Source: Rozella allomycis CSF55
Taxonomy: Eukaryota
DNA length: 64,000 bases
Direction of reading: 5' to 3'
NCBI GenBank assembly: GCA_000442015.1
Contig: KE561209.1
Location: 431,607-495,606, forward strand
Shown piece by piece: positions 2,351 to 64,000 of the stretch. The position numbers were made by a program, and so were the translations under genes. Each line of letters opens with the position of its first letter. Position 1 is the stretch's first letter. The notes under the pieces were generated by a model. That model was not told the DNA's origin and ran no database searches. It saw only the letters and a program-made list of their open reading frames with translations.

Positions 2351-2365
2351 TATGACTCGGAGTGN

Positions 2366-2668: not shown

Positions 2669-2779
2669 NGTCTTCAACCTTAATCTACCTGTCGCGGCTT
2701 TTCCAAGCTGACGATCCTATGCTGATTTCGTCTTTTTTCCCAGTATTTTTGAATCGGTCTATTATCATGGAAGTCTTCT

Positions 2780-12290: not shown

Positions 12291-12791
12291 GAAATCCATG
12301 ACGTACTATTCTAGATTTATGACTATTGGAACATTCGTAGACTGGTTAGAATCATGATTTCCAGAAAATTTCCTGGACTCCCCAAAGGTTCGTTTCAACA
12401 CCGATCGAGAGTTTTTAGAAATGCATGTCAGAGTTATCTTGAAAACATTACATAAAAGATCGACGCACTATTTGGGACCAGTATATGAGTAAAAACTGTC
12501 AGGACCCCCAAAAGGGAGTTTCAACAGAGCGTTTTTACAAATGATTGTCAGATTTATGTTAAAACCATCGCATAGGTCATCAACGCAGATACAAGAAACA
12601 CCTTTCGGAACCCTAAAGTAAGAAATGTATGATATCGAGGAAGTCTTCGAATTGTGCAAAAAAGGTAATTCCTATGACTGAAGATGTCGAAACTGTTGCC
12701 GCCATGTGCCCAATTCCAAGGGTTGTGCCATGATACACATAATAGCTATCCTGACTACAGGCGTCATCTGTATGTTTTGTGTGGCTATGGC

Positions 12792-12823
12792 ATGAAATGA
12801 AATGAAATGAAATGAAATGAAAT
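12792..12823. repeat. (ATGAA)n microsatellite
   Basis: About 6 perfect pentamer units. Confidence 0.9.
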
Positions 12824-13179
12824 TTATTTAACGAGGGGATTCCGNTGTGGCTATGGCATTCATGAGGGGGTCGGGCAGCTTGTCATAGTAAGACGGCAGG
12901 TGGCTCTAAAAGCATTTCCTCTAGCAAATCCCGTAAACGGGTGGCCTTAAATTTTAGTGAGCGATGTGATGATAAAACAAATTGAGCCCAGAGTGTGCGA
13001 ACTATTTTATTGCTTGGAGCCCACTAGCCAATGGAATGATTTTGGAATCTAATTTAAAACGTGTTATTGAACTTGATAAGGACAAAAACGACAAATTGTC
13101 ACGAACGATTTCGCCATCCGATTTGCTGTCGCAATTGTCAATACGAATTGATGTGGATTCCATTATCAAAGTCAAAAGT

Positions 13180-20404: not shown

Positions 20405-20460
20405 TAGCAAGGAAACAAGCTATTATTAGAAACTTTTTCAAAATAATTTATTGTCGGAAT

Positions 20461-27100: not shown

Positions 27101-29255
27101 ACCGCTGAACGTTCAATTTAGTGATGATGGCTTGAATATATCGATACGTGATATCAAAATTGATTTTTCTAGCAAAACCAAAATTACCAGGGTAAATAAT
27201 GCAAAATTTCCAAAATTTTAGACTAATAATTCAGAAATTTGGGTTGATGGTGATAATGTGTATTTTAAGCTACCTACTTTTACTACAATAAATCCAAAAC
27301 AGGATTATCGATTAATATACACGTTTAATTTGCATGATGCACAAATATCAGTAAAATCAGTTTTCAACACTGAAACACTAATTTCTACTGTAAATGATAA
27401 AATTGAGGTCAATGAACTATTTTATAATGCTTTTTGTCAAGAAATGGAGAGTATACAATCAAAGCTTGACGAAACATTTAACAATATGAAAAAATCAACT
27501 GCTAGCATATCAAATTCAGTTCAATTGTTATCAGCGGCAATAAAGAAAGAGTCGAATCCTATTCATCAGATGCTGACAACTAAATCTTTTCCATTTTTTA
27601 GTAGGGATCCAATGTTTGGACCAAAGTTATTTCTCGTCAAGGAAGATGGATCAGCCATTGAGTTTCTAAAATATGATGACCTGATCCCCTTTTTGGTAAA
27701 GGAAGTTGCAAAGGACTGTCACGTGGTTGAAAAGCCACTTGAAGAATCAGATGGTATTTGTTTGACCTTTCTTAAAAAGAAAAATGACACCAAGAATCCA
27801 TACATTTTATACAGACAGGTAATTAATTAATTTAAGAAACAAAGATAATTTATTATCCACCTTGTTCTTTAACAGAAAAGAAAAGTCTAGTTGAAGATTT
27901 GAATATTCTGGAACAAGAATGGGCAAATGAAGATTTAAAAAGCAACCTAGCTCTAAATGAACATCCTCCAACCTTTAGTTTTGTTACATTTAGTGGTTCG
28001 TCAATGACACATAAAGATATTTTACAAAAATATCATCAGATTGAATTAAATAAAAAGGCACAACAAGAAATTCAAGCTAAATTAAAGAGAAAATTTAATA
28101 AAGAAAATCGTCCAAATAGTTCATTAATTCATCGTCAAAGTTATTCATGCACCGGAAGGGATAAAATCAACTTGGACAAAAGTTCAAAGTTGGAAAACAA
28201 CAAATTGCTTGGTAAAGTTTGGTCAAACTATTGTCAACGAATGGAAAAGGCCAGAAAGAATGTATGTTATTTTGATTCAGAAGCAGGAAAGTCATTTTTG
28301 AAGAAACAAGTAGAATTTTTCTATTATTTTAAATAGCAAACAAATAAGCCAGTTGAGAAATTACCTGTATCTAATGTGCTACCAATTTCTCCGCTGGAAT
28401 TGGCATTGCCCGTGGATTCATTTAAAAACATTCCCATTTACATTCCAGATTCAGTTAAAGATTATAGAATAGGAAAGATTGAAAATCAAGAGGAATTAAA
28501 ATCACAGTTGAAAGCTCCAAAGAAACAATTAGAAAAACAACCCTTGAATCAAAAGCAAGAATTACCAAAGAAAAAGAAAGTTTCTCTTGTCTATGAGAAT
28601 AAGAATTTAAAGTTGCCTAGCTACATGAAATGTGGTCAACCTGGGCTTAAACTAAACGTTACCTTAGAAGGCCCTGTTCATAAAAGGCTTTATACGGCTT
28701 CAACTGCCTCCATCAAAAGTAAAGCATTGAAAATAAATTATATTCTAGGCGAAAAATTGGCGCAAGGCATTGTTTTGAGTCCTAATAAACTCGACTTTGG
28801 CATTCTTTGCCAAGGCTTTAAATATCGCACAGTTTTGAATATTTATAACGTCGGAGTCGATTCATGTAGATTCAAAATCAAGCCTTTTCCAAAAGACAGT
28901 CGAATAAAGTTAACTTATGACCCGGGCCTAGTAATACGAGTTAGCTTTGAAATTATCATAGATCGCCGCTGGAATGTCAGTTAAAGTAAAAGTTGATTTA
29001 GAAACATCACTTCCAAATCCTCAAATGGTCTCATTTGATTTTAAAGACTCGATTCAGATCGATACAGAGTCAATGTCTCTTCAAGTTCCAATAACTGCAT
29101 GTAATTTGATTTAAATATTTTAAATAGTAATGTTAAGATTCAGTGCTTATGATGAAAAGAAGAAAAAAGAGAAAAAAGCACTACATTCCAAGGACATAAA
29201 GCTCATTTCAGCTGACGGTCAAAAAGAAGAAATACCCATTGATGAATTGTATTAA
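24104..29255 (+). CDS. SPAG17: Sperm-associated antigen 17 / PF6-like flagellar central-pair protein
   Basis: GDEP.EGP, VTRGD...VEYPNSTKITT, PKLFLVKEDGSAIEFL, and C-terminal PapD-like LDFGIL.QGFKY...NVGVDSCRFKIK; about 11 introns. Confidence 0.75.
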
Positions 29256-29357
29256 TAAAATTCATAAAGAAAAAGTTAAATATTTGTTTTGAATTTGGCT
29301 CAAACATTAACTCCTTCTAGTCGTATTTCAATATTTCTGAAATTTTCGGCGCCATTT

Positions 29358-31038
29358 ATGGATTTTGAATTCCGGTCTGATCTCTCAACTTCTCCTATTC
29401 TGGACGATCCTAATATTGAACATGACTTTTTTGATGAGCTAAAAGCTGAACCTGAATCATACCTGAATTGTTTGCCAAGCAAAATGGATGAAATTGTGGT
29501 TAATATTTCTGAAGCGCACAGACCCATTTTAATCCCTCCAGTGGAGCTAGATGCATCTTCTGAAATTGACTTAAATTTAGAAAATTTTGTTAAACGCCAA
29601 GTAATAGAAGTTGAAGAAGAATTGTCATTGAAAGACTTGAACGAAAAGGGATCAACTGATGAAGGTATGTCATATATTTAAATTATAAAAAAGCTTCTGT
29701 TATTCAAATGCCCTCGCCGATACCGTCGGAAAATGCAACGTCCTATTTGTTTAATAACCACAGGCCTATTACAGCGAATTCTGATCATAGTAAGTAAATT
29801 CTATTACAAGCATAGATATTCAAAAAACATTAAATGATTTAAAAGAGAGGGTAGAGCGGATGGAGTTTGAAAAGAAGCAATCAGACATTGAAATAAAGCA
29901 CCTAGAATGGGAGAAATTAGACCTCCAAAAAAAATTAGAAGAAGAAAACATTAAAAGGGAAACTGAAATGAAAAATAGAAAGCAAATACAAAGTGAATTT
30001 TCTCAGACTCTTCCCACGGCGATGAACTCCTCGAATCCATTCTTATCAAGTGAAAAAATTGATATACCAAAAAGAATTGAAAACAATTCTATAGTTTTTG
30101 ATATTTTAAATGACGGAAACAAGGAAAAGGACAAGACTATTAAAGAGCTCACTGAGAGACTTTCAAATGCAGAAAATGAAATTAAAAGGTTGGAGAATTT
30201 AATAAAATCAATGCAACGCGATCAAATTCATTTTGAAACCTCTGAAAAAGAAACTCCATTATTCTCCGTCCCATCCAGCAAAGGGGAAACATTGGAATTG
30301 CTGGAAAAAGAGATTCAGAAAGAAAAAGAGCATCAACAGCAACTGTTAAATAAAGTTGAAAAATTATCTCAAAATTACAAATTGTCAAATCCGGTCAATA
30401 AAGCAAAACACACAAAAGTTGTATCAGTTAATAAAATGGCATGGATTGATCCTAAAGAAGCAAAGAAAACAAAGATTGGGCCACCCAAAAAGTCGAACTC
30501 GACAATAAAGTCTTTTGAATCTTTTAAAGATAAAATTGATAAATCATACCCTGTGCCGCTCGCTAGTCGAGCTCAATCGACGACTTCCTTGAATAAAGTG
30601 CCATTCTTGGTGGGGAAAGTATGATTTTATATTTTATTATTTTAGAATCCAGGGAAATCACATTCAATCGTTGCTCAAGCCCAACAATCGCTTGGCCAGA
30701 AAAAGCAAAAGTCTGAAATTTCGTTAACAAGCCATAAATTATGCCCGCCAAGTCAGACATTAAGACAAATAGAGGATGACTTGTTATTACTCAATAAAAC
30801 ATATCAAAAAACATTATTAAGATATCAAAATTTATCCAGATCATCAAAGCCTGATCCCTTAGCCTTTGACCATCTGGAAGAGCAACTAAAGGATCTTCTA
30901 GAATCAATGGATGCGAAAGTAACTTAAATTTGTGAATATTATCAGGGAAAACAACTTTTGACGATTTCAAGTTTGGTAAAGAAGAATAAAAAGGAAAATA
31001 TTTTTAAACAAATGCTTAAGGCAAACGATCCTCAATAA
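29358..31038 (+). CDS. CEP57: CEP57/translokin-like centrosomal coiled-coil protein
   Basis: VPFLVGK-NPGKSHSI motif and a C-terminal microtubule-binding-like helix (IEDDL...LKDLLESMDAKGKQL). Confidence 0.6.
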
Positions 31039-32509: not shown

Positions 32510-33554
32510 TTATATATAAAACAAGGCCAAAGAAAACAAAATTGTTGCTCCAATTGGTGAAAACGCGTCGGCAGCGCTTGCACTCAGAGTGGGGACATTT
32601 CCAGTAGTAATGCTGTCATCTGCCAGTTCCGAATTATTTCCTTTATCTGAGCTGTTACCAGTATCCGTATCATCTGTGCTTTTACCACTATCGGTATCGT
32701 CGGTGTTAGTATCTGTAACCTCTGGATCATCTCCATGTGTACTTTCCTCGTTAGAATCAGAATTTTCGTTATCGTAGCTAGTCTCTTTGCTCTCGTCATC
32801 GTTTTCGCTCACTGAGGCTTGACCTTCTAACGTATCAGCTACATCTTGAAGATCGGACAAATCGTCTGAAATCAACTCGTTATCAGAAGCAACATCAATT
32901 TCACTATTTGAAGTATCGCTTTTCTTGGCATTTTCAAATTGATTTGGACCTTCATTTGATTGAACTGGTCCCATATTTTCAACTTGTTTAGGAGTTGGTT
33001 CAGTTATTGTGGTCGTTGTTGTGACCGTTTCAGTTGGTTCATTGAAATCTTCAGTTGGAGATGCATTCTCGCCATAAAGTTCTTCTTCCAAGGGTGAAGT
33101 TTCTATTTCACTGTCAGCTTGCTTTGACGGTCCCTCTGCTTGTTTTGAAGGGGTTTCAGTTGCTTGTTTAGACGGTGCCTCTGCTTGTTTTGAAGGAGCT
33201 TCATCTGCTTGTTTTGAAGGCTTCACTTGCTTGTTTTGAAGGAGCTTCACTTGCTTGTTTTGAAGGAGCCTCGCTTGCTTGTTTTGAAGGAGCCTCACTT
33301 GCTTGTTTGTTTGTCTCGTTAGCCTTTTTGTGAATGTTAGGTCCAGAAACTTCATTCGCTTCGACCATATTTGAATTATCTTTTCCATTCAAGTCCGTAC
33401 CTGATGCGAAAAGGGACAAAGCTTTGTCGACAATGACTTTGATTGATTTTCTGATGTCAGCTTCGGACCAATTTGAATCACTATTGGGCCGAGGGACTGG
33501 CAACGTGAATACAACAGCCAAAAAGAAAAGAATGACTAAACGCATTTGATGCAT
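32510..33554 (-). CDS. Secreted, probably GPI-anchored acidic surface protein with KQASEAPS repeats; frameshifted in this assembly
   Basis: Signal peptide MRLVILFFLAVVFT; D/E/S/T-rich body; hydrophobic C-terminus after small residues. 2 nt are missing at 33220/33221. Confidence 0.7.
33115..33310. repeat. 21-24-bp coding tandem repeat (EAPSKQA[S])
   Basis: About 8 copies of GCTTGTTTTGAAGGAGC.TC. Confidence 0.9.
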
Positions 33555-33631
33555 TCCCCTGTTTGTAGCGAGCTTTAGGGGGTGAATCTAATTTTAGCAA
33601 TAATGTCAATAAAAATAGAGATTTAATTTAT

Positions 33632-36473
33632 TTATATCAATTGGTTAACAAACCGAGCAATTTCTTCTTTAATATAATTATCTTCACATAATTCCTGAAT
33701 TACTTCCCTATTTTTTTCCGTTGACTCACTTTTCTGAAGGTAACTGTGGCAATGATCAATTTTAGCGATCAAATCATTTAAGTTTGACACCTTGATTTTC
33801 TTTTCATTATTTTCCACCAACGAGGCTTTTCTTTTTGCCAAAGCAAGAACCGGGGTAGGGAACTTTGCCAATTTGGCAACATGAATACCAAAACTTTGAT
33901 CGCAAACACCTGATATAAATTTTTTAATTATTTTACCTGGCTTTACTTTGTAAAGAAGAGTAATCTTTGAAGTCTCAGTGAAGGCTGAAACATGAAAGTT
34001 TTTTACGGTGTTAATTTCTTTTTGAAGAACAGCCAATTCGTGGAAATGAGTAGCGAAAAAACAAAAGCAGCCAATTTGAGTGGCAATGTAGCTTGCAATG
34101 GACCAAGCGAGGCCAAATCCGTCATACGTGCTGGTTCCTCTACCCAATTCGTCAATGATAACAATTGAGTTTTTCGTTGCAGTCTTTAAAATGATTGATG
34201 TTTCCAACATTTCTGACATGAAAGTCGAAATTCCTTTTAGTTGATGATCACTAGCGCCAACTCTGGCTAAAATTGAGTCCCTGATGGATATTGTGGCTGA
34301 TTGACATGGAACAAAAGAACCAATCTGAGCCATCAACACAATTAATGCTGTTTGTCTTATAAAAGTACTTTTTCCTCCCATATTTGGCCCTGTTATAATG
34401 TGAAAAACACTTTCATCTTTTATAAATTGAACGTCATTGGCAATGAATGAGACATTTTCTTGTACCTCCAAACAAGGGTGTCTACCGCCATAAATTTCAA
34501 TATTCCCAAAACCCAATCCAGTAATTTTTGGTTTAACGTAAAAAGAAGAAGAATTTGTGACCAGGGTGGCAAATGACAAGATGACGTCAATGTAGGCAAA
34601 CCAATTATTGAGATTTTCAAACACCGAATGATACGTAGAAACAACTTTGACGAGTTCCTTGACGAGTTTTCTTTGCTTTGATTGAAAGTTATCTTTTAAT
34701 TCGATGATTTGATCACTCAAGGACTTTAATGTCTCTGTAGTCAAGTAGATCCCATTCTTTTGAGTGGCTAGTTCTGTGTAGCTTGATTTTCCATCTAGGT
34801 TGGTCCAATCCTTTTAAAATATAAACATTATGATTACATTTCTTGATATTCTAAAGAAATGACCATAAATTGGATTGAATTCTAATTTTATCTTTTTGTA
34901 AATTTCCAAGTGAAGGTCTTTGGAAGCATTTTCCAATTCAGGCTCCATTTGAAGCTCTAGAGAATTTATTTCTTCTTGAATCTCGTTTAATTCATCATCA
35001 AATGTTGATTTTAAAACGTATTCATGTCTATCTGCTTTTTCCAAGTCAACTGTTTGTTCAATGAGCTCTGCAAACTTTTGAACATTTTCTATTATTGTCA
35101 CTAGTGGGGAAACAAACTCGTTGAAAATTAATTCTTTGTGAATTCCCTCAAAGGTCATTAGTCTATCCCTGATGGGTAATAGGGACAATGCAACTTGATA
35201 CAAACGAATTAAATCCTAATTTTCTGCTTAAATTAAAAATTACTTGAATATTGGCGCTTCCTTTAAGTAGTTTCTTTACCATCCTTTGTAAATTGGGCGT
35301 TGTTTTGAACTCTTTGTTTCTTAAAGCATCTTTGATTTCAAAATTTCTAACAAATGCTTCAGTGAGGTTTTGTCGTTTTTCTATTTCAATGCAGTCAATT
35401 AGAGGTTGTCTAATCCATTGGCTTAGCAGAATTGACCCCTGTTGAGTGCAGCACGAATTTATTAATCCAAACAACGAACTTGTTTTTATTTCATCTTTAT
35501 TTGTAGGAAATAAATTCAAAGCGTGCATCGCTGCTGAATCTAACCTCATAAATTTATTGATGGGATAAATTTCAAGTTTAAAATTCTTATGATTAAATTG
35601 ATCAGCTATTAAATGAAGATAATCAACAAGACAATTCAAACAATCCAAAGAATAAGAATATTCTTCGCTGCTAGCCTTAATAACAGGAATATCTTCTTCT
35701 TTTATCAATCTACTCAATTCCTCTTCATTAAAGTCATAAAATTCTGTAACAAAGCTCTTAATGTTTTACTCTTCTTCCTTTCAGTTAATAAAATAGCCAA
35801 TCTCTCTTCAATCATCTTTTTCATTTTCCGGTATTCCAGAGATGAGTCCAAAGGCAACACTACCTCTTTAACTCCTAATTGAATAAGCAACGCTTCGGTG
35901 GTCGTAAATGAATCATTGGGATCTAAATATTTTACAATACCAAGTTTTCTCGTTGTCGTGTCCACAAACGCTGCATTCCAATACTTTTAAATAAATCAAA
36001 TGAACTTACAGGCTCATTGAATAAAAGGCTTATCACAACCGCCCCATCATTAATTTCAGTTTCACTGTTCAGCCAATCATTTTCAAATGCAACCATATTT
36101 CCAGGTGACGCCTTTTATAGAATCATCCATTTTTATTTACTTCTTTGATGCATTTATATTCTCCCCCTGCCTTATTATAAACGCGAACTCTCTTCCCATG
36201 TGTTAACAAACAATCTCGTATAAAACCATCTGCTTGTGCTCTGCTAAAACTAACATACACACAGTCATTATAAAATTTTAAAACAGATGTAGTATTGAAC
36301 AAGTATTCTGCAACAAATTGGGCATCTGAATCATGAACAGTAAAGACATCGCCACGATCAAAAAACAATATGGCGTCTTCTTTCTGTTGCCTCAAAGTTT
36401 TAAATACAGTCAAAAAACTTGAATCGAAAGGAGAATTCAAAGCTTGTGTGGATTTTTTAGAATACTGTTGCAT
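33632..36473 (-). CDS. MSH2: DNA mismatch repair protein MSH2
   Basis: FFDRGDVFTVH..DA; MRLDSAAMHALNL; GRHPCLE; TGPNMGGKSTFIRQ; DELGRGTSTYDGFGLAW; DQSFGIHVA. Confidence 0.95.
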
Positions 36474-42258: not shown

Positions 42259-43194
42259 ATGTCTTGGTCATCACTTCGCCAAACCTGTTTGTTAAAGCAA
42301 CCACCGCTTCAATCAACTATTAGTATTAATCCAATTCGCCAAACTTTAACTTTCTTTAGCCGACCAGTGGTTAAGTATACTGCGTCAAGTGAAAAAGAGC
42401 TTGATGGATTTCATGAAGGAAGTCACAGGTCTTTAAGAATTGCGCAATTTAAAAATGATTCCAAAGGAATTAGATCAATTACAAATTATTTGAGTAATGT
42501 TTCTTAATGCAATAGAAATAGAGCCAGCGCCATTGTTTACTAATCAGCGTCGTCATTATTCAAGCTCCAATGATGGATTTTTTATTGCAAAAGAAGATCC
42601 TAATTATGAAACAACTCAGGCGCCAGATTGGTCATACATGAGGCGCCAAAACCCTAATGCTGATGACAACCGTACTTTTACATATCTGGTGGTTGGTGCA
42701 TACAGTGTCTTTGGTACTATTGCTGCTAAATGCACAGTGGCTACTTGTTTGGAATATTTGGCGCCCCCTAAATGTGCTATTGCAGCTGGATCAGTTGAAG
42801 TAGATTTGAGCAATATTCCTGTAGGAAAAAGTACAATTGTAACTTGGAGAGGAAAACCAATTTTTATTCGTCACAGAACAGAAGATGATATAAAATTGGC
42901 CAATGATGTAGATTTAAGCACACTGCGTGATCCGCAATCAGATAGTGACAGAGTCCAAAAGCCAGAGTGGTTAGTAATGATTGGTATATGTACTCATCTT
43001 GGATGTATTCCTACTGGTGATTCTGGTGACTTTAACGGATGGTTCTGTCCATGTCAGTAAGTGTGATCTTAATTTGAAACTGTAGTGGATCTCACTATGA
43101 TAGCAGTGGAAGAATCAGACTTGGACCAGCTCCGCTTAATCTTGAAGTACCAAAATATGAATTTCTGAGTGATACTACGATTAAGCTCGGTTAA
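42259..43194 (+). CDS. RIP1: Cytochrome bc1 Rieske iron-sulfur protein
   Basis: [29 protein letters not shown] split by an intron at 43057-43085, [10 protein letters not shown]. Confidence 0.97.
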
Positions 43195-43253
43195 TAAATG
43201 TGCCTTTCTTTCATTTTGTTTCTATTCTTTGTGGCTTGTGCCAGGCTGCCAGC

Positions 43254-46549
<3,296 letters not shown>

Positions 46550-46630
46550 TATTTTGAGTAAATTATGTTTTATTGGGGAAAATTTACATAACGATTAAAA
46601 TTGTTTCTAGAGATTTAGTAATTTTCGAGA

Positions 46631-49600
46631 ATGAATCGCGCCAAAACTACGTTAGAACTTGAAAAGGAAGTGGAACATCTTTTAAAAGAAAAGAGGTTAA
46701 AAGGTAACCATTTTAAAGATTTAACAGAGAAAATCAAATTGACGCTCTTGAAAATGCACTAAACACTAGTAGAAAAAAGGGTGATACATTAAAGGAAGAT
46801 TTGCTGAATTCCCAAAAGCAATTAAATCAAGAGAGAGAAAACATAAGAGAAATGGAATTAGATTTAAAAAAGAAGGGAGAAGTAAAAATCTATAAAATGT
46901 AAAACAGGAAATCAAGCACTTGACGATGAATGTTGAAAAGCAGAATCGCGATAATCAAAATCTAACAGAGAAATTTAATCAAGAGAAAAAGACTAGATTG
47001 CATATGCAAAAAGGTAAATTTTGCGATTAAGTATAAGAATAGTTGTTGACAATTTGAATATGCAAGTGCAACACTTGAACCAGCAGATAATGAAAATGAA
47101 GGATCAAAAAGAGAATAGCCTGATAGGATTGAGGAATAAAGAAAACGTTTCGCCGATATCGAATATTCCAAACCCAACGAAAAGTTTAATTCCTAATCCC
47201 ACTAATTTTAAAAAGACTTCTGATGACATTAAAGGTGGGGAGATGCCAACCCCTTTGATGTCATTTAATGCACCTAATCCGCAGCTTGCTTCATTGAAGA
47301 CTGTGAATGTGAAATTGGAGAATGAATTGATCGTTTCGCAAAAGAAGAATGAACAACTTGAATCTAATGTGAGTGATTTGATGAAAGAAAAGAAACGAAT
47401 GGCGGAAGAAATCAAAGAATTGCAGGGGTCGATAATGAAATTTCAGAATTCAAATAAACAAGAGCAAGAAAAGAATGTCTTGTTGAATAAACAAATTGAA
47501 CATTTGAAATCTGAATTAGAAAAGAAACAAATGGAGGTGAATGAGTCTCAATTGACATTGTTGTCACATGATGATGAAGTGAACCAATTGCAAAAAAAGA
47601 TGAAAATATTCCAACAGGATTTTGAAAAGAATGAAAAGGAAATAAAAACTTTGAAACAAGGGTATCAAGAAAAGGAAAGAGAAAATTCAGAAATAAAGAA
47701 AGAGATTGATGAATTAAAGGAACACGAAGATCAATTAATAAAAGAAAATGATTTTTTGAAAGCAAAGCAAGAAGGGATTATAAGAGAGAATGAAGATCTG
47801 AAGAGAGGGTTGGAAAACGTAAAGTCAGAAATTGAAAAGAAGAAAGTAGAAGTTAAATCTAAAGAAGATGAAATGAAAAAGATTGAAAAAGAGTTTGAAA
47901 AGAGAGAAAATGATTTGAAAAATGAAAATTTAGAATTTAGAAACCTTTCTGAAATTTCTGAAATAAAGATTAAAAATATTGAAATTGAAAAGAATCAAAA
48001 ATTGAAAGAAAAAGAAGCGGAAATCAATAAAAGAGATGAGGAAATTAAAAATTATTTGATAAAGATGCAACAAGTTGAAAAGGATTATCTTTACAAGATT
48101 GAAATTGAACAGAAGAAACAAAGGGAAATTTTGCAGCAATTGGAAGAGCAACAACAGCAAGTTAGAAGGAAGACTGAAGAGAATGAAGCGATTGAGAAAA
48201 ATAATAGCAAGTTGAAATGTGAATTGAATGAAAAGGAAGAAGAAATAAATAAATTGAGAAATGAATTGAAAAGTTTTAAAGTTGAAATGATTGAATTAAA
48301 GGAAGCGCAAAAGATGAAAGAAGAAATTGTAAAGGAAAGAATGCAAGGGGAAATTAATGAAAAAGAAGAAGAAGAAAATTTGAATGAAATTCTTTTAGAA
48401 AAATTACGAAATGAACAAATAAATTATTCTTTATTGTTGGAAGATTTTGATTCTGAAAGATTAAAGTTACAAAATGAAATTAAAAAAATAACCCTGGAAA
48501 AGAATAATCTAATCTCTGAATTTGAAAATGAAAAATTGAATTTAATAAATAAATTTTCAAATGAAATTGAATCTGAAAAAGAAAATTCCAAATTGTTGAA
48601 TGAAAATTTGAATTTTGAATTGAAGGAATTATCTAGATCTATTTCTGAAATTTCTAAAGTAAATGAAAATTTAAAATCTGAAAATTTAAAAATAGATCAG
48701 GAAATTTCTAAAATAAAAGAAGAAAATTTTGAAAAAGAAAAAGAAAAAATGAAAGAAATTTCAGAATTAAATCAAAGAATTTTTTCATTAAATTTAGAAA
48801 TTGAAAATTTGAAGAAAGAAAATAAAGAATTATTAATTTCTGAACAAGGTTTATTAGACAAGATTGAATCATTTTATATGAAGAATTCTATTCTTGAAGA
48901 TCAATTGAAGAATTTAAATCTAAAATTAGAAAATGAGATTTTTGAAAAGGAAAACATTTTAAAAGATTATCAATTTAAATTAAATCAAGCCGATCAAATC
49001 ATTCTGAAAAATCATCAAAATATTTTAGAATTAAAATCAAAAATTAAAGAATTTGAAGGTGAAGGTGAAGGGGTTAAAATGGAAGGAAATGAGATTGAAG
49101 AAATTGAAATAGTTAGAGTCGATGACGAAGAAAGAGTTAGAGTCAATGAATCTCTCAGGGAAGAAGAATCTCTAAAGGAAGAAGAATCTCTCAGGGAAGG
49201 AGAGTCTCTTAAAGTAGAAGAATCTTTAAAGGAAGAAGAATCTATTAAAGTAGAAGAAAAATCATTTAGTGAAATTGGAATTCAAGTGGATTGTTTAATT
49301 AAAGAAAATTCAATTTCTTCAATTTTAAATTCCTTGTCACAATCTGAAAATCATTTAAATCAACTTGATTCATTCATAGATCATTCAATAGAAGATCAAA
49401 TTTATTCTTTAATTTATGAATTAATTGATTCATCTTGCAATCACACAATTGAAAATAAAATAGATGTTAATAAAGCAAATATCGAGGCCGATATTGATAT
49501 CGCAGCTTCTAATGTCTCTTTATCTGTTGTCTATTCGACTACCCCTCTTGAAGCTACTGTTGATAATACCTCTGCTAATCACGCGCAAACTATCCAGAAG

Positions 49601-49816: not shown

Positions 49817-49882
49817 TATCATTCATTTTACATCTAAATATCATTCATTTCACATCTAAATATCATTCATTTCACATCTAAA
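49817..49882. repeat. 22-bp tandem repeat x3 in intergenic/promoter DNA
   Basis: TATCATTCATTT(T/C)ACATCTAAA three times. Confidence 0.9.
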
Positions 49883-49912
49883 TTTCTCTCTTTCCTCCAT
49901 AGTGGCTTGGCG

Positions 49913-52888
49913 ATGAAGGATTTTACTTCAAGTTGCGTTCAAGGAACAAACGATAGTTCTTCAAAATCTAAAGCCTCTATGGAATCCCTTGGCTATTTAC
50001 CAAATTCTAAAATTAATCTTTTTCTCTCCCAAAAAGTTCCAAAAAGAGCTCCTTTGATAAACAGAGGCTACTATCTAAGATGTCATATTATTCAATCTTT
50101 AATCAAAAAGTTAATAACTGAAAATGAAATACATCAAATTATTAACATTGGCTGCGGTTTCGACACTCTCTTCCATTCTATCCTCGAGAATTTCAAATCT
50201 GTCAAATTCATCGACGTTGACTTTCCTGAATTACTAGAAAGAAAAAATCAAATTATCAATCAAAATGTTTTTGGCAATCTAGAAAATTATTCTTCAGTTG
50301 GTTGTGATTTAAGAGATTTGAATAACGTGGAAGCATTGCTTGTTGAAAATGGAGTTGATTTTAGTAAAAAGACTTTATTTTTGGCTGAATGCGTTTTAAC
50401 TTATGTGCCTCATGACCAAGTTCAAGCAATATTATCATGGATGACTCGTAAATTTGATGCGTGTGCCTTTATACTTTATGAGCAGGTTATAACCAAAGAA
50501 TCAACTTTTGCACATTATTTTGATGATGCTTTTACGTTTACTATGCTTAATCACTTTGAGAAATTACAATCATCGTTACGCAATATAAGAAAATATCCCA
50601 CTTTGCCATCTATTAATAAAAGATTAATGTCATGTGGATTTGATAATGTATTGATTCATAATCTAGGAGAGTATTGGTACCATTGGCTTGATAATGATGA
50701 AAGAAATAGAATTGCCTCGTTGGAAATGTTTGATGAATACGAAGAATGGGATGTTAAAATGGGTCACTATTTTGTTTCACTGGCTTTGAAGAATATTAAG
50801 GTTGAGAATATTGTATCTAAAAATGAATTCAAGGAAACGATCACTGGGAATGTTACTTGTTTGGATTCAGTCACCTTGTCAGACTTTTGCGAGCTATCTT
50901 TACCGTTTGAAAGATGGGGACACACATCAGTACCATTGGGTAATAAAATTTATACATTTGGAGGCTTCGGGAAACAAAGATTGGATGATTTAATTATAAC
51001 AAATGCTGATGGTGAGTCTTACCCTTGCTATTCCCTACAATTCCAAAATTCATATTTGACGGAATTGAAAAAGCCTTGTGCCAGGGTATATCATGCTTCA
51101 ATTCCTATTAATAAACATCAATTTATCGTTCATGGAGGAAGAAAAAGTCCCAAGGATGCATTGAACGATTTAATGCTTTACGATATTAATCTTGATAAAT
51201 GGTTTCTAGTGAATACAATAAATAAAGGACCAAAAAGATTTAGACACAAAATACTTGCAAAGAATGGAAATATTTATGTCATTGGAGGATTGGGTGAAGA
51301 CATTCAAGACAGTTTGTGGGAGTTAAACGTGGAAAGGATGGAATGGAATTGTATTTCAAGTGAACAAAGTCTTTGTAGATTTTCTTTTACATTAGAAATT
51401 TTTGATGATAAAATTTATGTTTTGGGTGGAAGATCGTCACTTTGCCCAGAAAGCGACACTGTCATTCCATTCGTTCTTAATTTCTCTATAGAAACGTTAA
51501 AATTTAGTAGTTTTGATCTTTACAGCTCTGAAGGTGATAAATTGCCACTTCGTTATTCTCATTCTTCAACTCAATTATGGGGTGCTTCTGTTATGTTGAT
51601 AGGAGGTGTTTCAAAGGGTCTAAATCATAACACTCCAAATATTGATCATTCTTTAACAATTTCTGTTATAGATTTAGCCAATAAAAGCTGGATAAACATC
51701 CCAAGACCTGATAGTGTTGTTGCGAAACATTACACATTCGATGGCGTTAGTCAGTCTTCTTATGAAAGAGAGCATCTTTCAATGTGGATTGGTCATTCTT
51801 TATGTGCTTTCAGTAAAGAAGATAATCAAATTGAAGTTTATTTGATGGGCGGTGGGATGACTTGCTTTTCAATGGGGACTTTTTATGATAAACCTTGCAC
51901 ATTTAAAGTTAAAAGGAATTTAGTAGATGAATTGATCGTTGATATGAAACTTGAAAGCTCGCCATTTAATAAAGTTGATATAATAGAATGCTCAACTCCA
52001 GAGCATTTTAATCAAATCCTCTCAATGGATCGCCCTGTAGTTATCAAAAAATCATTTCCGAAATTTCAGAGTGTAATCGATTTGAAAAGATACTTTAAAG
52101 AAACAGATTTGGTGTCAATTCATACATGTGAATCTGAATATTTGCAATTCACTCCCAGAAACTATACATTTGAAACAATTTTAGCTCATAAATTTCTAGA
52201 TAATATTTCTCAACACAAGACCTTTTGCTACTTGAGATCCATTGGTGAGAATCCAAGAAAACAAGCTTCTGACATTTTCTCTTCAATTCCTAATCTTTAC
52301 GATGATTTAAACATCGAAGAAGTTTTTCCATTCACGAATCCTCAAAATCCAAGATACTTTTCAAGTGTCTTTAGAGTGTCTTCTGCTGGCTTAAGATTAT
52401 GGACCCACTATGATATCATGGATAATATTTTAATTCATTTATGTGGAAAGAAAACTGTCACCTTATGGCCTCCAGAAGCTGTTGCTCATCTCTACACCCA
52501 AGGATCATCTTCTCCTGTCATCCACTTTGAAACATTAGAAGATTTAGTTTCTCATCCATTGTTTTCTAGATTCAAACCAGTTCAAGTTACTCTCAATCCT
52601 GGTGACATTTTAGTTTTGCCTTCTCTCTGGTTTCATCATGTCTATTCTCATCCTGAGGTACCGACTCTGTCCATCAATGTATTCTTTAAATCTCTCGAAA
52701 ATGATTTATATGTCAAGAAAGATCTTTATGGAAATCGTGATTTGGCCCCCTTTGAAAAATTTCAAGAATTGACCAATGATTTGATTGTCAAACATTTTGA
52801 CAAATTGCCTGAAAAGTTCAAAAAGTTTTACTCGCTGAAAATGGTCATGTATTGGAAAAATTATTACAATCAACTAGTTGAAAAATAA
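49913..52888 (+). CDS. PPM2: tRNA wybutosine enzyme: LCM methyltransferase plus kelch (TYW4/PPM2) fused to JmjC hydroxylase (TYW5-like)
   Basis: VQGTNDSS..SKAS, RAPLINRGYYLR, GCGFDT, LAECVLTY; kelch GG repeats; LWTHYD.MDN and WFHHV JmjC triad; intronless. Confidence 0.9.
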   Translation: MKDFTSSCVQGTNDSSSKSKASMESLGYLPNSKINLFLSQKVPKRAPLINRGYYLRCHIIQSLIKKLITENEIHQIINIGCGFDTLFHSILENFKSVKFIDVDFPELLERKNQIINQNVFGNLENYSSVGCDLRDLNNVEALLVENGVDFSKKTLFLAECVLTYVPHDQVQAILSWMTRKFDACAFILYEQVITKESTFAHYFDDAFTFTMLNHFEKLQSSLRNIRKYPTLPSINKRLMSCGFDNVLIHNLGEYWYHWLDNDERNRIASLEMFDEYEEWDVKMGHYFVSLALKNIKVENIVSKNEFKETITGNVTCLDSVTLSDFCELSLPFERWGHTSVPLGNKIYTFGGFGKQRLDDLIITNADGESYPCYSLQFQNSYLTELKKPCARVYHASIPINKHQFIVHGGRKSPKDALNDLMLYDINLDKWFLVNTINKGPKRFRHKILAKNGNIYVIGGLGEDIQDSLWELNVERMEWNCISSEQSLCRFSFTLEIFDDKIYVLGGRSSLCPESDTVIPFVLNFSIETLKFSSFDLYSSEGDKLPLRYSHSSTQLWGASVMLIGGVSKGLNHNTPNIDHSLTISVIDLANKSWINIPRPDSVVAKHYTFDGVSQSSYEREHLSMWIGHSLCAFSKEDNQIEVYLMGGGMTCFSMGTFYDKPCTFKVKRNLVDELIVDMKLESSPFNKVDIIECSTPEHFNQILSMDRPVVIKKSFPKFQSVIDLKRYFKETDLVSIHTCESEYLQFTPRNYTFETILAHKFLDNISQHKTFCYLRSIGENPRKQASDIFSSIPNLYDDLNIEEVFPFTNPQNPRYFSSVFRVSSAGLRLWTHYDIMDNILIHLCGKKTVTLWPPEAVAHLYTQGSSSPVIHFETLEDLVSHPLFSRFKPVQVTLNPGDILVLPSLWFHHVYSHPEVPTLSINVFFKSLENDLYVKKDLYGNRDLAPFEKFQELTNDLIVKHFDKLPEKFKKFYSLKMVMYWKNYYNQLVEK

Positions 52889-53853: not shown

Positions 53854-54763
53854 CAAGAAGTCCAGGTGGCGTTGTTTGGTTATTAATTTGAACGTGGGTG
53901 GCGAAGCAAATTTAGGCCAAATTTTAAATTAGCAATTATTGAGAATCAAATTTTTTTATAGAAATAAAGCGAAAGGCTAAATTTATCTCGGTAGTATATC
54001 CCATCTACGCTATTGTATTCAAATTAGCCATCATTTACCTCTGGGACATTAGACTTTTAACGGAAAAAATCTATTTCAACTTAATTGGCATTTTTGGCTT
54101 CAAAGTCTTAATATTTTTTTATTTACTCGACAAATTCAAGGCTATTGAGGGATGTAGAAGTGAATGGCGAGAGCCGATGCTCACATTGACGTTTTGAACT
54201 TAGACATACGATGACCATAGTCCATAGTACATACTAAATGTTTATTTTTTACAGAAAATAACGGTGACTATTTAATCTATTTAATAAATCAGTGTCACAC
54301 ACGTATTTCATGCCCTTGAGGTTGTCTTGAAGAATTAAGTATTTCTTGAGAAAAACCTCCAACTGCCATGACCAATTACCATGGAAAAAGCGGTAATTGG
54401 TTCAAGTCAACGCTTTTTTCGCCTTCCTTTGACGAAGGATCACTAAGCCAAGTTCAGCCACATTTGTTCAACAACAATTGACAAAAGTCTCCAAAAATAG
54501 CTTTTGTGCAGTCGATAATAATTAATGATTATATTGTATTGATTATGTTGGTAGTCCTTTAAAGTTATGGGTAACAAATCAATAAAATGTTAATGCTTTC
54601 ATTATATCATATTTTCAATTCATAGTGCATTTGAGATTGCCCTGAGACACAAATTTTCGCTGAATTACGTTTTGAAGATGTAATTAAATGATTTGATATG
54701 TTTACAGATCACTTGTAAATGTGAAAATTCCGAATAGGCCGGGGCCAGTAAACAATTGTGAGA

Positions 54764-56880
<2,117 letters not shown>

Positions 56881-56917
56881 ATAAATATTACCTTTCAAAA
56901 TTTAAAACTAGTTTTAT

Positions 56918-57823
56918 TCATTTAAAGTCATAAGTCATGTTTCGTACTTTGGCATTAACATTATCTTTTGGTGTATCACTGTTAGTTTGAACATTGTTGG
57001 AGCTAGCTGTGGCCGACTTTTGCGACGACGAGATCGATGTAGTAGATTTTTGGTTACTTGTTTTAGTTGAAACTGCATTGAGTTTTGATTTCTGGTTTGC
57101 ATTTGAACTTTGTTTATTTTTTGCTAGTTTATTTGAAGAAACAACGAATGCGTCAGAAGAAGCCAATATATCCTTTGACGCAGATTTTTTCTTTTTGGCT
57201 GAAGAATTTCTATTCTTTTTCGAATCTGTAGCGGCTGCCGAATTATCTCTAACCTGCCTCTTTTCCTCCGTAATTTTGAAATATTGTATCGGTACCTTGG
57301 TCCAGTGTTTTCTTTAATTCCTCGTCGCTTGTAACTTGCGAGGGCATCATGCCGGCATTATTTGGAATTAGAGCATTTACGCCAGCGCTGAGCAAGTAAT
57401 CAACTGCTTCATTTTGATTCCCGACTGCAGCGAAATGCAGAGGTGTTGAACCGTAGTGATCCTGTTTGCTTAAATTTGCAACAGAGCCATGTTGAACCAA
57501 GGAAGATAGAATGCTGTTGTGGCCGTTTGTAGCCGCCCTTTGCAATTAATGTGGTGTGATTACCAATGAAAAGGTGTTGTTCCATAGGAATCTTCGCCTT
57601 GAACAATTGCACCGTTTTCAAGCAATAATTTGACAATCTTGTCGTAACCGAATTTAGAGGCTAGAATTAGAGGACTATTTGTGTGATATAATATTTTTTA
57701 CGTTGTACCATTTGATTTTGATTTGCAGTTAATGTTTACGTTTTGCCAGATGCATTGGTATACTTTTTCAAAGTCGCCCTCTGCGCATGCATGTAAAAGG
57801 TCATCTTCATTGTAAGGAGCCAT
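56918..57823 (-). CDS. Ankyrin-repeat protein with K/S-rich tail
   Basis: TPLILASKFG, TPFHWAATNGH, TPLHFAAVGN. Confidence 0.85.
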
Positions 57824-58014
57824 GAAAACAGAGGAATGTAAATAAACAAAAAGATTAAAGATAATAAAGGGAATTGATTACTGAATAATGAATTCATAAC
57901 TTTTATATAATTTTCATACTAGTGTAATTTCTATTGACCAATTTAAGTTAATTTTCACCTCAAAATTAAAAGGGGTAATTCTAGAAATTTCCATTTTGCG
58001 AGAACCCTTGTAAA

Positions 58015-59831
58015 ATGCAGCAGCAGCCAGTGATAGTTTTGAGTAAATTAGATAAATGTAGGATAATAGATACAAAAACGGAGCGAACCCAAGGACGCAG
58101 TGCGCAGAATGCGAATATAGTAGCTGGCAAGACGGTGTCTGATATCATAAGAACGTGTTTGGGGCCACGGGCGATGTTGAAGATGTTATTGGATCCTATG
58201 GGAGGGATAGTGTTGACAAATGATGGGAATGCGATATTGCGCGAGGTAGAGGTAGCGCATCCCGCAGCGAAATCAATGGTAAGGGATGATGAAGAGTGAT
58301 AAAGATTGAAATAGCGAGAACGCAGGATGAAGAGGTTGGCGATGGAACTACGCAGTGATAGTGTTGGCAGGAGAGATATTGGCGAGGAGTGCGACGTGTT
58401 TGGAGAAGAATGTGCATCCTGTGATTATAATAAAGGCGTATAAGAAGGCGTTGGAGGAGTCTTTGAAGGTTATTGAGGAGATTAGTTTGAAGGTTGATGT
58501 GAGTAAAGAAGAGGAGGTGTTGAAGGTGATTAAGAGTTGTATTGGAACCAAGTTTAGCAGTAGATGGAGTGATTTGATGTGTTCGTTGGCATTCAAGGCC
58601 GTGAAGACTGTTTCTATTGATAATGATGGGGTTAAAGAGATTGATATTAAAAGGTAAGAGTGAAGAATGGATGAGAGAATAGATATGCCAGGGTAGAGAA
58701 GATACCAGGGGGAGAAATTGAGCAGAGTGAAGTTTTGGATGGAATTATATTGAATAAAGATGTGACTCATCCAAAGATGAAGAGACGAATTGAAAACCCT
58801 AGAATTATCTTGTTGGATTGCCCATTGGAGTATAAAAAGGGAGAATCACAAACGAATTTAGAATTTTCCAAAGAAGAAGATTTTGCCAGGGTGTTACAAA
58901 TTGAAGAGGAGCAAATTAAAGAGATTTGCGAGAAGATTATTTCATTGAAGCCAGATATTGTTATAACAGAAAAGGGTGTGAGTGATTTAGCACAACATTA
59001 CTTTGTCAAGGCTAATATTACAGCGTTGAGAAGAGTTAGGAAGACAGACAATCATAGAATATCGAGGGCAGTTGGGGCAACGATTGTTAATAAAGTGGAT
59101 GATTTGAAGGAGAGTGATGTTGGAACAAAATGTGGATTGTTTTACATTGATAAGATTGGAGATGAATATTTTTCATATTTTGTTAAATGTAAAGAACCAA
59201 AAGCATGTTCAATTATTCTAAGAGGAGCTTCTAAAGATATTCTTCATGAAATTGATAGAAATTTACAAGATGCAATGGCAGTAGCCAGAAACATTGTATT
59301 CAATCCAAAACTATCACCAGGTAATGAGAAATGTTAAATATTTTAATTAGGTAATTAATTCTTTTTAAACTTAACTTCAGGTGGTGGTGCAACTGAAATG
59401 GCTCTAAGTGTGAAATTGGCTCAAAAGGCTAAAGAAATTGGTGGGATTGAACAATTCCCATTCAAAGCATTAGCTGAAGCATTTGAAGTTATTCCAAGAA
59501 CTTTAATTCAAAATTGTGGTGGAAATGTTATTCGTTTGTTAACTCTTTTAAGATCCAAACATGCTTCTAATCAAGGTTCATCATTTGGTGTTGATGGCTG
59601 TGATGGAAAGATTGTTGATATGAAAGATTATGGAAGTATTTCATTTCTCTTTCAATAATTCTAGTTTGGGAACCAAGTGCTGTTAAAATTCAAACTATTA
59701 AAACTGCTATTGAATCTGCTTGTCTTTTATTAAGAGTTGATGATATTGTTTCAGGGGTTAGCAGAAAAGATAAATCTACTCAGCCACAACAACAACCTCA
59801 ACCTGAAGAAGCTGAGCAACCAGAACGTTAA
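58015..59831 (+). CDS. CCT3: Chaperonin CCT/TRiC subunit gamma (1-nt deletion at ~58352 in this assembly)
   Basis: RTCLGPRAMLKMLLDPMGGIVLTNDGNAILRE; LNKDVTHPKMKRRIENPRI; PGGGATEMA. Confidence 0.96.
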
Positions 59832-59988
59832 TAAATTAAATTGAGGTATTAAGAGAGAGGGTTTTAAAGGGGTTGAAGGGGTTAAAATGGGTTGAGTTGA
59901 AAGGGTTAGGGTTGTATTAGGTGAGACGTGAGACGTGTGAGTACATGGATGTCAAATTAATTCAATTCAAACTAAGTCAAATCATTTT

Positions 59989-61298
59989 TTATTTATTTAA
60001 TAACTTTTCTACTCGGCTGCAAATTAGTTCAACTGATGGTAACGATCTTTCTTCATAATTCTTTGCATATGGCATTGGAATGTCTGCACCACTAATTCTC
60101 TCAACTGGACCATCCAAATAATCAAAACACTCTATATTATTCTACATGTATTCTTTAACCTTCCATTGCCATTGCACTGATCTCTGATCCAACCCCAAAA
60201 TGTGGCCATCCACCTTCAACCGTCACCAAATAGTTTGTCTTTTTAATTGACTCTCCAATAGTCTTGAAATCAATCGGTCTAATCGATCGCAAATTAATCA
60301 CCTCATCTTTAAATTCATTCTATTGTTACTTCAACACTTATTCCCTTTTCTTTCAATATTTTAGCTGCATCTATCGCTAATCCAACACTCTTTGAATGTC
60401 CAACAATCGTCACATCATTTCCTAACTAATACCCTCTATTTAATCTCTACCTGCAACTTCTACTTTGCATTTCCCTATTTCAACTACAAAATCTTCCTTT
60501 AACGCTTCTTCATCCATCTCAAATGGCACTCCATACAACAATTCATTCTCTAATACAACAACTGGATTTGGATCTCTTATTGCTGCCTACTCCATCCACA
60601 CCACATTACTCACCTTCAATAGTCCTCTAGCATCTTCACTGGAATACGGTGACACAACCTTCAATCCTGGCACCGATCCGTACCACGATGCAAAACACTG
60701 CGAATGCTGTGCTCCAACACCCGCTGCGGCTCCATTAGGCCCTCTAAACACTATAGGCACAGGCGCAACCCCTCCACTCATATACAACGTTTTCGCTGCT
60801 GAATTCACTACATGATCAATAGCCTTTATCAACCACCACCTCTCGTTACCTGCATTGAAAAATTAAACGTCATGAATTCACAAATAGGGCGCAAGCCAGC
60901 TAATGCAGCACCTCATTCACCATCTTTAACATTTTTACCTTTTCATCTAAATTCAACTATTTTACCTATTATTTCATTCTCAAAATATTACCTACTGCTA
61001 TTCCTGCAAATCCCATCTCGGTAATTGGTGTATCAATAACTCTGTTTTCGCCAAATTTATCCAATAGTCCTCTACTAACCTGTTATATTTTTTAAATATG
61101 TTTGTCTACTTTGTATGCGCCCTGGTATCTGGCTACTTCTTCGCCCATCAGAAATACTCGCGAATCACGCTTCATTTCATCTTCCATGGCACTGTTCAGA
61201 GCATCCCGCACCGTCATCTGCTATTTTTATTCTATTTAGTTTACTTTAACCTTGTCTGATAGAGTCAAAGAACGATTAAAACATCGTCTAAATAACAT
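59989..61298 (-). CDS. PDB1: Pyruvate dehydrogenase E1 beta subunit
   Basis: [60 protein letters not shown]. Confidence 0.96.
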
Positions 61299-61447
61299 TG
61301 GACCAGGGTTGTCACTAAAGCCAATATGTTTCTAGCAGTGACATTAAGATAATAAAACTAAATTGTTAAGAATCTTAAGATAAAATTAAAGAAATCAAGT
61401 TGAAGAAATCAGGTTGAACAAATCATCAAGTCATGTTGGCATGTTTA

Positions 61448-63502
61448 TTAAAAGAGTTTGATTTTATCTTTTTCGTCTTCAGACATGTCATCAAAATGAT
61501 CACGGTCTGGTGATTCTGGCTCAGCTACTACTGTCATCTGAAATTTCAAATAGGTATATTATTTACTGGAAACTCTTTCTCAAAGTCTAAACCTGCGTAT
61601 GAATCATTCTTAAGAACAACCTTGATTGGATACTTTCCTGGCGGAATGTTCAAATAAAATTGGACTTTAACCTAATTATTGAAATAAATAAATAAAAATT
61701 ACAGTCTTTGATTTCCCAACGTTGTAGAGAACTACAGGGTCACAAATTGTTCTATTTTGAATAGTAAGGAATAGCCACCAACACGAACTTTTTTCTTTCT
61801 TGTAGAATGGACAATAAACAGACTCATCTTTTGCATCATTTGTAAGAAATGATTTCAATCTGCCAGATGGAGTTTCATCATCTATCCCTGGTAAAGCTTC
61901 TGTCACATCATCAAATGAAACTGTCTCTTCTGGTGCATTTTCATCCATAATTAATTGAACAACAGCAGTAATAACAGATCCAGAATAAACATTGTCTTCG
62001 CCAAGGGTAGTGTACTTGACATTAACCTTCTTTATCACTGGGAAAGATTTCAATGCTTCCATGACCTCTTTTCTTTCTTCGCTCTTTAAATCTTTCAATA
62101 GAGTTTGCTTTGTTTCTTTTGGCAGAGAAACAAACTTTGGAATATCTAAGCCTCCTTTGGCGCCACTAATCGTCAATGACAAATCATGAGTAAGAAATGG
62201 AAGTTGCCAAAAGCTAATCGTTGGATTAGGAAGAGCTTGAATTATCATTTGCGAAACCGATATCATTGACAATAAACTCTCATGATGTCCTTTAGCCATT
62301 GCAATCTTTATCATAGTTGGAAGAAACTTTATGGATTGTTCCAGAACTTTTTGCTGCTCTTCATGAAATTTCTCTGGGACCTCAACCCTGAAAATATGCG
62401 CGTAAATTAAAGTATGAACTTTAACAGCTATAGCATTCGTGAATTTACGAGATAATTCGTAATAATATCCGTTTTTATCAGCAAATCTTTGTAAATCACT
62501 CATAAGCTTTTATATTTTAACATTATCTCTTACCTCCTTTAGTTCTTCATGATCAGGAGTAATCAACGTTTCAAATTCAGATGCGCCACTGATTGCTTCA
62601 ATAATATCACCAGGAATCATAACATCCTCAATTAAATGATAAAATGTTTTCGCGGATTTCCTGTAAACCTTCATTTTGGTGTATTTTTTCGATTTTGACC
62701 ACCATTGACCCTGGTTAACAAAACAAGTGGCTTTGTACAATTTTATAAGGCATAAAAACTGCCATCAAGATTCCATACAGAAATAAAACTTTAAATCCAT
62801 TTTCCTGAGAAACAACCCATGCTGGAAGCGCGATGCCTAAAGAAAATGCTACATCAAGAGACTGACTATCGCTTACTTTGTTGTCCATCAGGATTTCCAT
62901 ATTCTTCCCAGTTTTTACGAATATCTTCATCAGTCAATGCTTGGTAAGCCTTTGAAATTTGAATAAACTTTTCATTTGCTTCATCCTTCAAGTCATCAGA
63001 AACTTTGTCAGGATGCCTTGTCAATCAACATAACATTACGTACCATTGTTGCGACAATTTGTAAAACTTTTTCTTAATTTCAGCAGGGCTGGCAGTCTAT
63101 CTTTGAGGGACGAAAAACATTACCCTGTCAATTTCTAAAATTTTAAAGGGATCATAAAATTGATCAACTACTTCCGTTGTGTGGATCACATAATAAGAAT
63201 AGCCAGCTACTAAAATTGCAATCAAAAGTAACAAGTTCCTTTTGTTGTCGACAGGGGAGATGCTTACCAAACCCAAGTGTTCTCTTTGTTTTTACGACTT
63301 TCCAGATATCTAACTTTTCTTTGCATAGGTGGAAATTTTGAAGCCTTGCTTTTAGTGTCAACTACATTTTCTATGGTCTAAAAGTGATGGGCATACTTTT
63401 TTTAGTGCACAAGGCATAAAGGCGTTGCAAAATAAAAATCACTGATACTGTTAGAGTGAAAAACGCAAACGTTAAACCAGTTTCATCAAACGTGTACTTC
63501 AT
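61448..63502 (-). CDS. SEC63: ER translocon J-protein Sec63
   Basis: MKYTFDETG; transmembrane segments; J-domain YDPFKILEI...[23 protein letters not shown]; Brl domain. Confidence 0.92.
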
Positions 63503-63559
63503 CGAACTGTAAATTTCAGAATGATTGTCAACTTTTGAGGGATATTTCCGTTTTCAGTT

Positions 63560-64000
63560 ATGAGCTGCTTGAATCCATTGGCTATTATTGGTGCTACAGC
63601 AGTCGGAAAATCCAGCATGGCAATAAACGTAGCGAAAATAATAGGGGCTGAAATCATATCGTGTGACAGTGTCCAAGTATCATTCATAGTTTTATAAAAG
63701 ATGGTGTATAGAGATTTAACTATTGGATCTAACAGGGTTGTAAATTACGAAAATGTGCCCCATCACCTAGTAGGGTTTCTAGATCTCGATCAACAATTTT
63801 CTGCTGGTGACTTTTATCGCAGTTGTACACACTTAATAAAAGTAAAAGTTGCCCTAAAACATCACAGGAAATACAATCCAGGAACAAGGTACCTTTGATT
63901 GTTGGCGGCGCCATGTTCTACTTGAAATGGCTTTTTGAAGGCCCTCCCCCAACTCCCTTACCTACCCCGATTAAAATAAGAAAAGAAACAGAAAAATTAA
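63560..64000 (+). CDS. miaA: tRNA dimethylallyltransferase (MiaA/IPT family), runs off the window end
   Basis: IIGATAVGKS, EIISCDSVQ/VYRDLTIGS, VPHHL, FSAGDF, VPLIVGG; 2 introns. Confidence 0.88.

Follow-up and report, generated by a model that had tools for sequence, protein, structure and literature searches.

The window, meaning the whole 64,000-nt stretch of Rozella allomycis CSF55 DNA that was analysed, carries on its minus strand the gene for the beta subunit of pyruvate dehydrogenase E1 (PDHB). One of the intervening sequences of this gene, 80 nt in length, is filled by three abutting units that each have the borders of an intron; this arrangement is referred to here as an array. The features of the locus are listed below, with splice-site scores given as percentiles relative to 100 solitary introns of the window.

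59989 to 61298, minus strand: whole PDHB (PDH E1-beta) gene, including a probable 5' exon (gene model and parse).
60992 to 61079, minus strand: PDHB exon upstream of the array, 88 nt, ending in AG (gene model; matches the public proteins P0121 and P0004).
60966 to 60991, minus strand: array unit 1, 26 nt, GTAA at its start and AG at its end; 5' site at the 72nd and 3' site at the 73rd percentile.
60939 to 60965, minus strand: array unit 2, 27 nt, GTAA to AG; 5' site at the 84th and 3' site at the 68th percentile; TGA in frame if it is the sole unit retained.
60912 to 60938, minus strand: array unit 3, 27 nt, GTAA to AG; 5' site at the 100th and 3' site at the 11th percentile; TGA in frame if it is the sole unit retained.
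60850 to 60911, minus strand: PDHB exon downstream of the array, 62 nt, beginning with GT (gene model; matches P0121 and P0004).

Read on the minus strand, positions 60991 to 60912 are occupied end to end by units of 26, 27 and 27 nt, with two AG|GTAA junctions located at 60966|60965 and 60939|60938. The exon before the array ends in ...GTAG, and the exon after it begins with GTGCT. The original prediction had described three abutting units of these sizes with GTAA starts and AG ends, a description found to be exact to the base. The three units contain no C at all, compared with 8% C in solitary introns. A hand-built model of the gene comprises eight coding exons, which begin with an ATG at 61217, end with a TAA at 59989-59991 and are separated by introns of 30, 80, 26, 27, 29, 28 and 28 nt. 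An additional 5' exon encoding the presequence, together with its intron, is probably also present.

Translated, this model yields the pyruvate dehydrogenase E1 beta subunit in full. When the 70-residue exon at 60614-60823 was used as query, a 100% identical protein, P0004, named for Rozella allomycis CSF55, was retrieved. A second public version from Rozella allomycis CSF55, P0121 (326 aa), belongs to the same cluster, and the model protein from 61217 on is identical to it along its entire length, which bears out the gene assignment made earlier from the letters. With the 80 nt removed, the translation across the array was found to be identical to both P0004 and P0121, and six other fungal homologues are colinear with it; the conserved stretch IAVGAAL, predicted to be restored by removal of all three units, is the same in both public proteins. 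Since the public proteins and the six fungal homologues are continuous at this point, the entire 80 nt must leave the mRNA, with nothing inserted. In-frame stops, which had also been anticipated for retained units, were observed in all seven partial-retention forms of the array.

Two further observations were made with these proteins. At the intron at 60302-60329 (minus strand), P0004 reads KGINEVINL, whereas P0121, the model and the fungal homologues read KGISVEVINL; it appears that one annotation took an adjacent GT..AG pair, an alternative choice that illustrates the weakness of the splice signals. In a metagenome scan for which P0004 was the query, 80 loci were obtained, none above 69% identity and nearly all colinear, with no sign among them of a close Rozella relative.

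The introns of the window were collected with a Viterbi gene parser, which combined codon log-odds, splice-site weight matrices and ATG-to-stop gene models and was run on the 64-kb window. A check against homologues covered two genes, PDHB over its full length and the neighbouring CCT3 for the two exons that flank its own array. The parse gave 107 intron units in 22 confident gene models, all of 25-32 nt apart from one of 36 nt, with a mode of 27 nt; 91 of the 107 are 26-29 nt long, so that the unit size of the PDHB array is indeed that of the window's introns, as had been claimed. None of the 100 solitary introns exceeds 32 nt, in a parse that carries a length prior. The peak at 26-29 nt is not imposed by that prior, since it was already present (87 of 105 units) in an earlier parse that gave equal credit to all lengths of 24-32 nt. 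The length distribution is narrow and unimodal near 25-30 nt, as in ultra-short-intron regimes. Intron density comes to 2.61 units per kb of CDS, in agreement with a published value of 2.53 per kb for Rozella allomycis (PMC8476143). Internal exon lengths (n = 88, median 147) begin with 0, 0, 0 and 0 and continue with 27, 36, 50 and upwards, and because of this jump from 0 to 27 the zero-length exons form a class of their own and not the tail of a distribution.

Splice signals in the window are weak: the median score is 6.5 bits for 5' sites and 5.8 bits for 3' sites. The 5' consensus is GTAA, in which A is found at position 3 in 90% and at position 4 in 74% of introns, and the 3' end is T/A-AG. 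A search of the window introns for a branch-point motif defined none, the one feature seen being an enrichment of A at -3 to -6. Considering weak signals together with a tightly fixed length, pairing of a 5' site with an AG about 27 nt downstream looks to be the main rule of recognition.

Other parses and scans were less informative. A parse with a flat length prior was unreliable as a test for long introns, as it ran through intergenic and antisense DNA and skipped homology-verified exons. A model-free scan for tiled gaps with at least 30 open codons on each side was non-specific, giving 3 hits against 3 in reversed-sequence controls, and PDHB was missed because its flanking exons are short. 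Six long jumps (71-194 nt) in an unconstrained parse were gone once an ATG start and a stop end were required; by eye, several resembled gene boundaries and one resembled a mis-parse beginning with a 27-nt intron. Same-strand gene models were observed to lie about 60-106 nt apart at 29252-29358, 43191-43254, 46546-46631, 20404-20464 and 33554-33635, indicative of extremely short intergenic spacers, and such spacers were misread as long introns in the unconstrained parse.

The PDHB array is not the only one in the window. CCT3 (TCP-1 gamma), the neighbour of PDHB on the plus strand, contains an array of 30+30 nt about 1.5 kb away from that of PDHB, and a third array is possible elsewhere:

59321 to 59350, plus strand: CCT3 array unit 1, 30 nt, GTAA to AG (flanking-exon homology).
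59351 to 59380, plus strand: CCT3 array unit 2, 30 nt, GTAA to AG; 3' site at the 9th percentile (flanking-exon homology).
24678 to 24740, plus strand: candidate third array of 27+36 nt (24678-24704 and 24705-24740), called by the parser in a gene model of 1601 aa.

The sequences flanking the CCT3 array align to residues 203-414 and 416-498 of the yeast CCT3 chain 5gw4_g. The sole residue missing between the two exons is a split Gly codon, showing that all 60 nt are removed. The possible array at 24678-24740 likewise has AG and GT as its exon flanks; its 27-nt unit could be coding, since it holds no stop if retained and is located in a Lys-rich stretch.

Could such tilings arise by chance? In a simulation of 200,000 introns of 80 nt, generated by a first-order Markov model for which the 100 solitary introns had served as training set, full tiling by units of 24-36 nt was obtained once when GTAA..AG borders were required, 9 times with GTA and 74 times with GT. 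Random scatter of 107 units over 40,956 nt of CDS is expected to give 0.14 abutting pairs, against 3 verified junctions (P = 4e-4). The PDHB array is confirmed to be real and far from chance. Its units are not copies of one another, as originally stated: unit pairs within arrays were no more alike than random intron pairs, with a fraction of 0.12-0.57 of the 4950 background pairs scoring as high or higher. Comparison of the array units with each other and with the 100 solitary introns, within the window, gave no similarity above background, and they do not behave as introner-like elements. Unit interiors have no residual similarity, yet all junctions read AG|GTAA and all units are of modal length, which suggests that the junctions have been maintained. 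Folding of the RNA of the three arrays gave structures no more stable than those of shuffled sequences (z = -0.13, 0.24 and 0.70), arguing against a stem that would shorten the distance between the outer sites.

How, then, would the 80 nt be cleared? The reading that we consider moderately probable is that they constitute three independent spliceosomal introns, cleared in three successive reactions with zero-length exons between them. Through intron definition, each unit would be recognised separately by its GTAA 5' site and an AG about 26-27 nt downstream; each has what the other introns of the window have and may be expected to be treated as one of them. A spliceosome assembled on one unit would hold the next unit as its 3' exon. 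Simultaneous removal of abutting units would thus be impossible and the reactions would have to be successive. Each reaction would join the same exon end (...G) to the next GTAA and so regenerate a 5' site. On paper, removal of unit 1, and again of unit 2, leaves an exon end ...TAG followed by GTAA, with 5' scores at the 84th and 100th percentiles, respectively. As to the order of removal, 5' to 3' in the course of transcription would be a guess. The spliceosome of this organism would presumably not handle an 80-nt span in a single step. The idea of a length-measuring spliceosome, part of the original prediction, draws on a length distribution taken from a parse that uses a length prior. Weighing against this reading are the low 3' scores of the last units of the PDHB array (11th percentile) and the CCT3 array (9th percentile). 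Overall, the indirect evidence favours removal in three steps.

The main alternative, which we regard as rather unlikely, is a single intron of 80 nt that leaves in one step, bounded by the first GT and the last AG, its internal AG|GTAA sequences being unused relics of growth by duplication or insertion. Both public gene models excise all 80 nt and give the right protein, which fits one-step removal equally well. The low 3' score of unit 3 (11th percentile) does not discriminate, because the same site would be used in one step. However, several features sit poorly with a single step: 1) both internal junctions are intact although the interiors of the units have diverged to background similarity, 2) all PDHB unit lengths are held at 26-27 nt, 3) the parsed solitary introns, found under a length prior, stop at 32 nt, 4) an AG at the preferred 26-nt distance from the first GT would have to be skipped, together with several further AGs, 5) no RNA structure shortens the 80-nt span, and 6) the same tiling is seen again in CCT3.

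Mixed routes, in which removal is mostly stepwise, some units are skipped (53-54 or 80 nt at a time) and stop-bearing partial products brake expression through nonsense-mediated decay, are improbable. Stops in all of the seven partial products would suit such a brake, and the weak signals at both splice sites would permit variable pairing. Against this, in-frame stops are expected by chance alone in A/T-rich stretches of 27 nt, and nothing indicates regulation of PDHB and CCT3, which are housekeeping genes.

Contigs of four runs, X3, X4, X5 and X6, were found to behave as DNA, without splice joints. An X3 contig running from 60147 to 63895 is gap-free and differs from the window at 2 letters; an X4 contig covers 60166-61005 with zero differences, extending only 14 nt past the array on one side; either X3 or X4 may itself be the source of the window sequence. 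An X5 contig at 60292-60973 covers unit 3, unit 2 and 8 nt of unit 1. No indels were found inside 60912-60991 in the contigs aligned, and the call for a check of the DNA is answered by X3 and X4, whose contigs cover all 80 nt without indels. An assembly or sequencing artefact is hardly credible: the window does contain 22 isolated Ns, but none is found beyond 12845, contigs of two runs (X3 and X4) cover the full array, and a collapse or expansion error is unlikely because the units are not repeats of each other.

In the same region (54001-64000), X5 and X6 contigs are 95-99% identical to the window, with many substitutions and small indels, and those of X3 and X4 are near-perfect. The divergence of X5 and X6 suggests a second allele or strain in the sample. 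In CCT3 unit 2, changes of the X5/X6 type comprise a base inserted after 59371, A>T at 59373 and a base missing at 59375, and the unit stays at 30 nt despite all three. At 59840-59937, 96 nt are missing from one contig of X5 and from one of X6, probably a deletion polymorphism; the site, which is C-rich on the minus strand and holds short direct repeats, comprises the 3'-terminal part of the CCT3 model plus the spacer toward the convergent PDHB.

Where do arrays occur? The three arrays, the candidate included, are all flanked by AG and GT in their exons, a combination that 2 of the 100 solitary introns have (P = 5.7e-5 by Fisher's test); with the candidate at 24678-24740 counted instead as a solitary AG|GT intron, the P value is 1.9e-3. 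The window thus has five AG|GT-flanked intron positions, two or three of which are arrays. The sole solitary introns with such flanks are located at 56672-56701 (plus strand) and 33910-33936 (minus strand). Their frequency is that expected from independent flanks (26% x 8%, about 2%), and so there is no general sign of proto-splice-site insertion among solitary introns. The association of arrays with AG|GT exon flanks is a new observation.

With regard to origin, the arrays fit either repeated insertion at a proto-splice site or duplication of whole introns through AGGT microhomology at both borders. Tandem duplication between AGGT sites has been put forward as a model of intron gain (PMC3265369, PMC4974935). 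This model places AGGT at both ends of the repeated unit, like the arrays described here, and predicts copies that are similar, at least initially, whereas the present units are at background similarity. The dissimilarity of the units disfavours a recent duplication and is still compatible with an old one followed by divergence. The repeated gain at one AG|GT site that was originally proposed is therefore upheld in part: all arrays lie at exon AG|GT and their units are dissimilar, but an old AGGT duplication may also account for them.

Splicing through zero-length exons is already known. Recursive splicing at ratchet points with zero-nucleotide exons has been described in long Drosophila introns (10.1101/006163), and zero-nucleotide-exon splicing in long vertebrate introns is cited within a later report (10.1101/224170). 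The latter also gives one fungal case, BOT1 of Cryptococcus neoformans, in which an intron of 375 nt is divided into pieces of 210 and 165 nt. Recursive splicing involves AG|GT juxtaposed inside an intervening sequence, and both PDHB junctions match this. It also re-joins the upstream exon to a regenerated 5' site in several reactions per gap, and the same is predicted for PDHB. Differences are equally clear. Known cases concern long introns, of kilobases in animals and 375 nt in C. neoformans, whereas Rozella arrays have units of 26-30 nt in a whole gap of 60-80 nt; the 80-nt gap of PDHB is threefold the mode of 27 nt, not a hundred-fold as in animal recursive splicing. Further departures from the known cases are the two ratchet points in succession in the PDHB array and the occurrence of arrays twice, possibly three times, within 64 kb.

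Stwintrons (spliceosomal twin introns) are known from filamentous fungi and Lipomyces (PMC7138796). These complex intervening sequences leave the transcript in consecutive standard splicing reactions, a serial removal that the array described here would share. A stwintron is defined by an internal intron that disrupts the donor, branch or acceptor element of the external one; the PDHB units, by contrast, keep uninterrupted GTAA and AG elements and abut without being nested, which sets them apart from stwintrons. Ultra-short-intron regimes have been reported in Paramecium, Nyctotherus and myxozoans (PMC5014332, PMC13644364), and resemble that of Rozella in a narrow length range near 25-30 nt, weak signals and stops in retained introns. 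A term search of these two papers found the words tandem, consecutive and recursive to be absent. For Rozella itself, two nuclear S23 introns of about 30 nt and without conserved motifs are mentioned in one paper (PMC6349667), and the word 'intron' is absent from the Paramicrosporidium genome paper. In the literature searched, no account of abutting mini-introns in Rozella or other organisms was found. What would be new here, relative to zero-length-exon splicing with its one fungal case, is an array of minimal units of 26-30 nt.

If the units are removed singly, recursive splicing would occur at the opposite size extreme from that of its discovery. Its purpose would then not be the management of long introns, and its cause would be a machinery that accepts one narrow intron length. 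Such a system would offer a natural test bed for the measurement of intron length by a spliceosome with very weak sequence signals at its disposal. The tie between arrays and AG|GT flanks also bears on the origin of new introns, as arrays would be sites at which intron number grows with the gene kept intact. Since zero-length exons lie outside what gene predictors can represent, arrays enter annotations as single long introns, which distorts the intron statistics of the lineage.

A broader proposal, which we put forward tentatively and hold to be possible but doubtful, is that the Rozella spliceosome has a limit of about 35 nt and that longer gaps may exist only as chains of mini-introns growing at AG|GT-flanked introns. 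In that case, chains would grow through re-insertion or whole-intron duplication, amounting to a genome-wide multiplication of introns by concatenation. Secondary peaks of annotated intron length would then be expected near 54-60 nt and 80-87 nt.

Some features of the surrounding DNA were recorded as well. GC skew is +0.40 over 58-60 kb and turns to -0.31 over 60-62 kb, at the meeting point of the convergent CCT3 and PDHB genes, and the coding strands of both genes are G-rich and C-poor. The 22 isolated Ns of the window are confined to 1162-12845, and gene models in 1-13000 score poorly; this part of the window looks to be of lower quality, or of different content, than the rest. At 49838-52885 (plus strand), an open frame of 1016 codons was found to combine leucine carboxyl methyltransferase, Kelch repeat and Cupin_8 domains. 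Other long ORFs of the window match the MFS_1, MutS domain V and glycosyltransferase families, a context of ordinary housekeeping genes.
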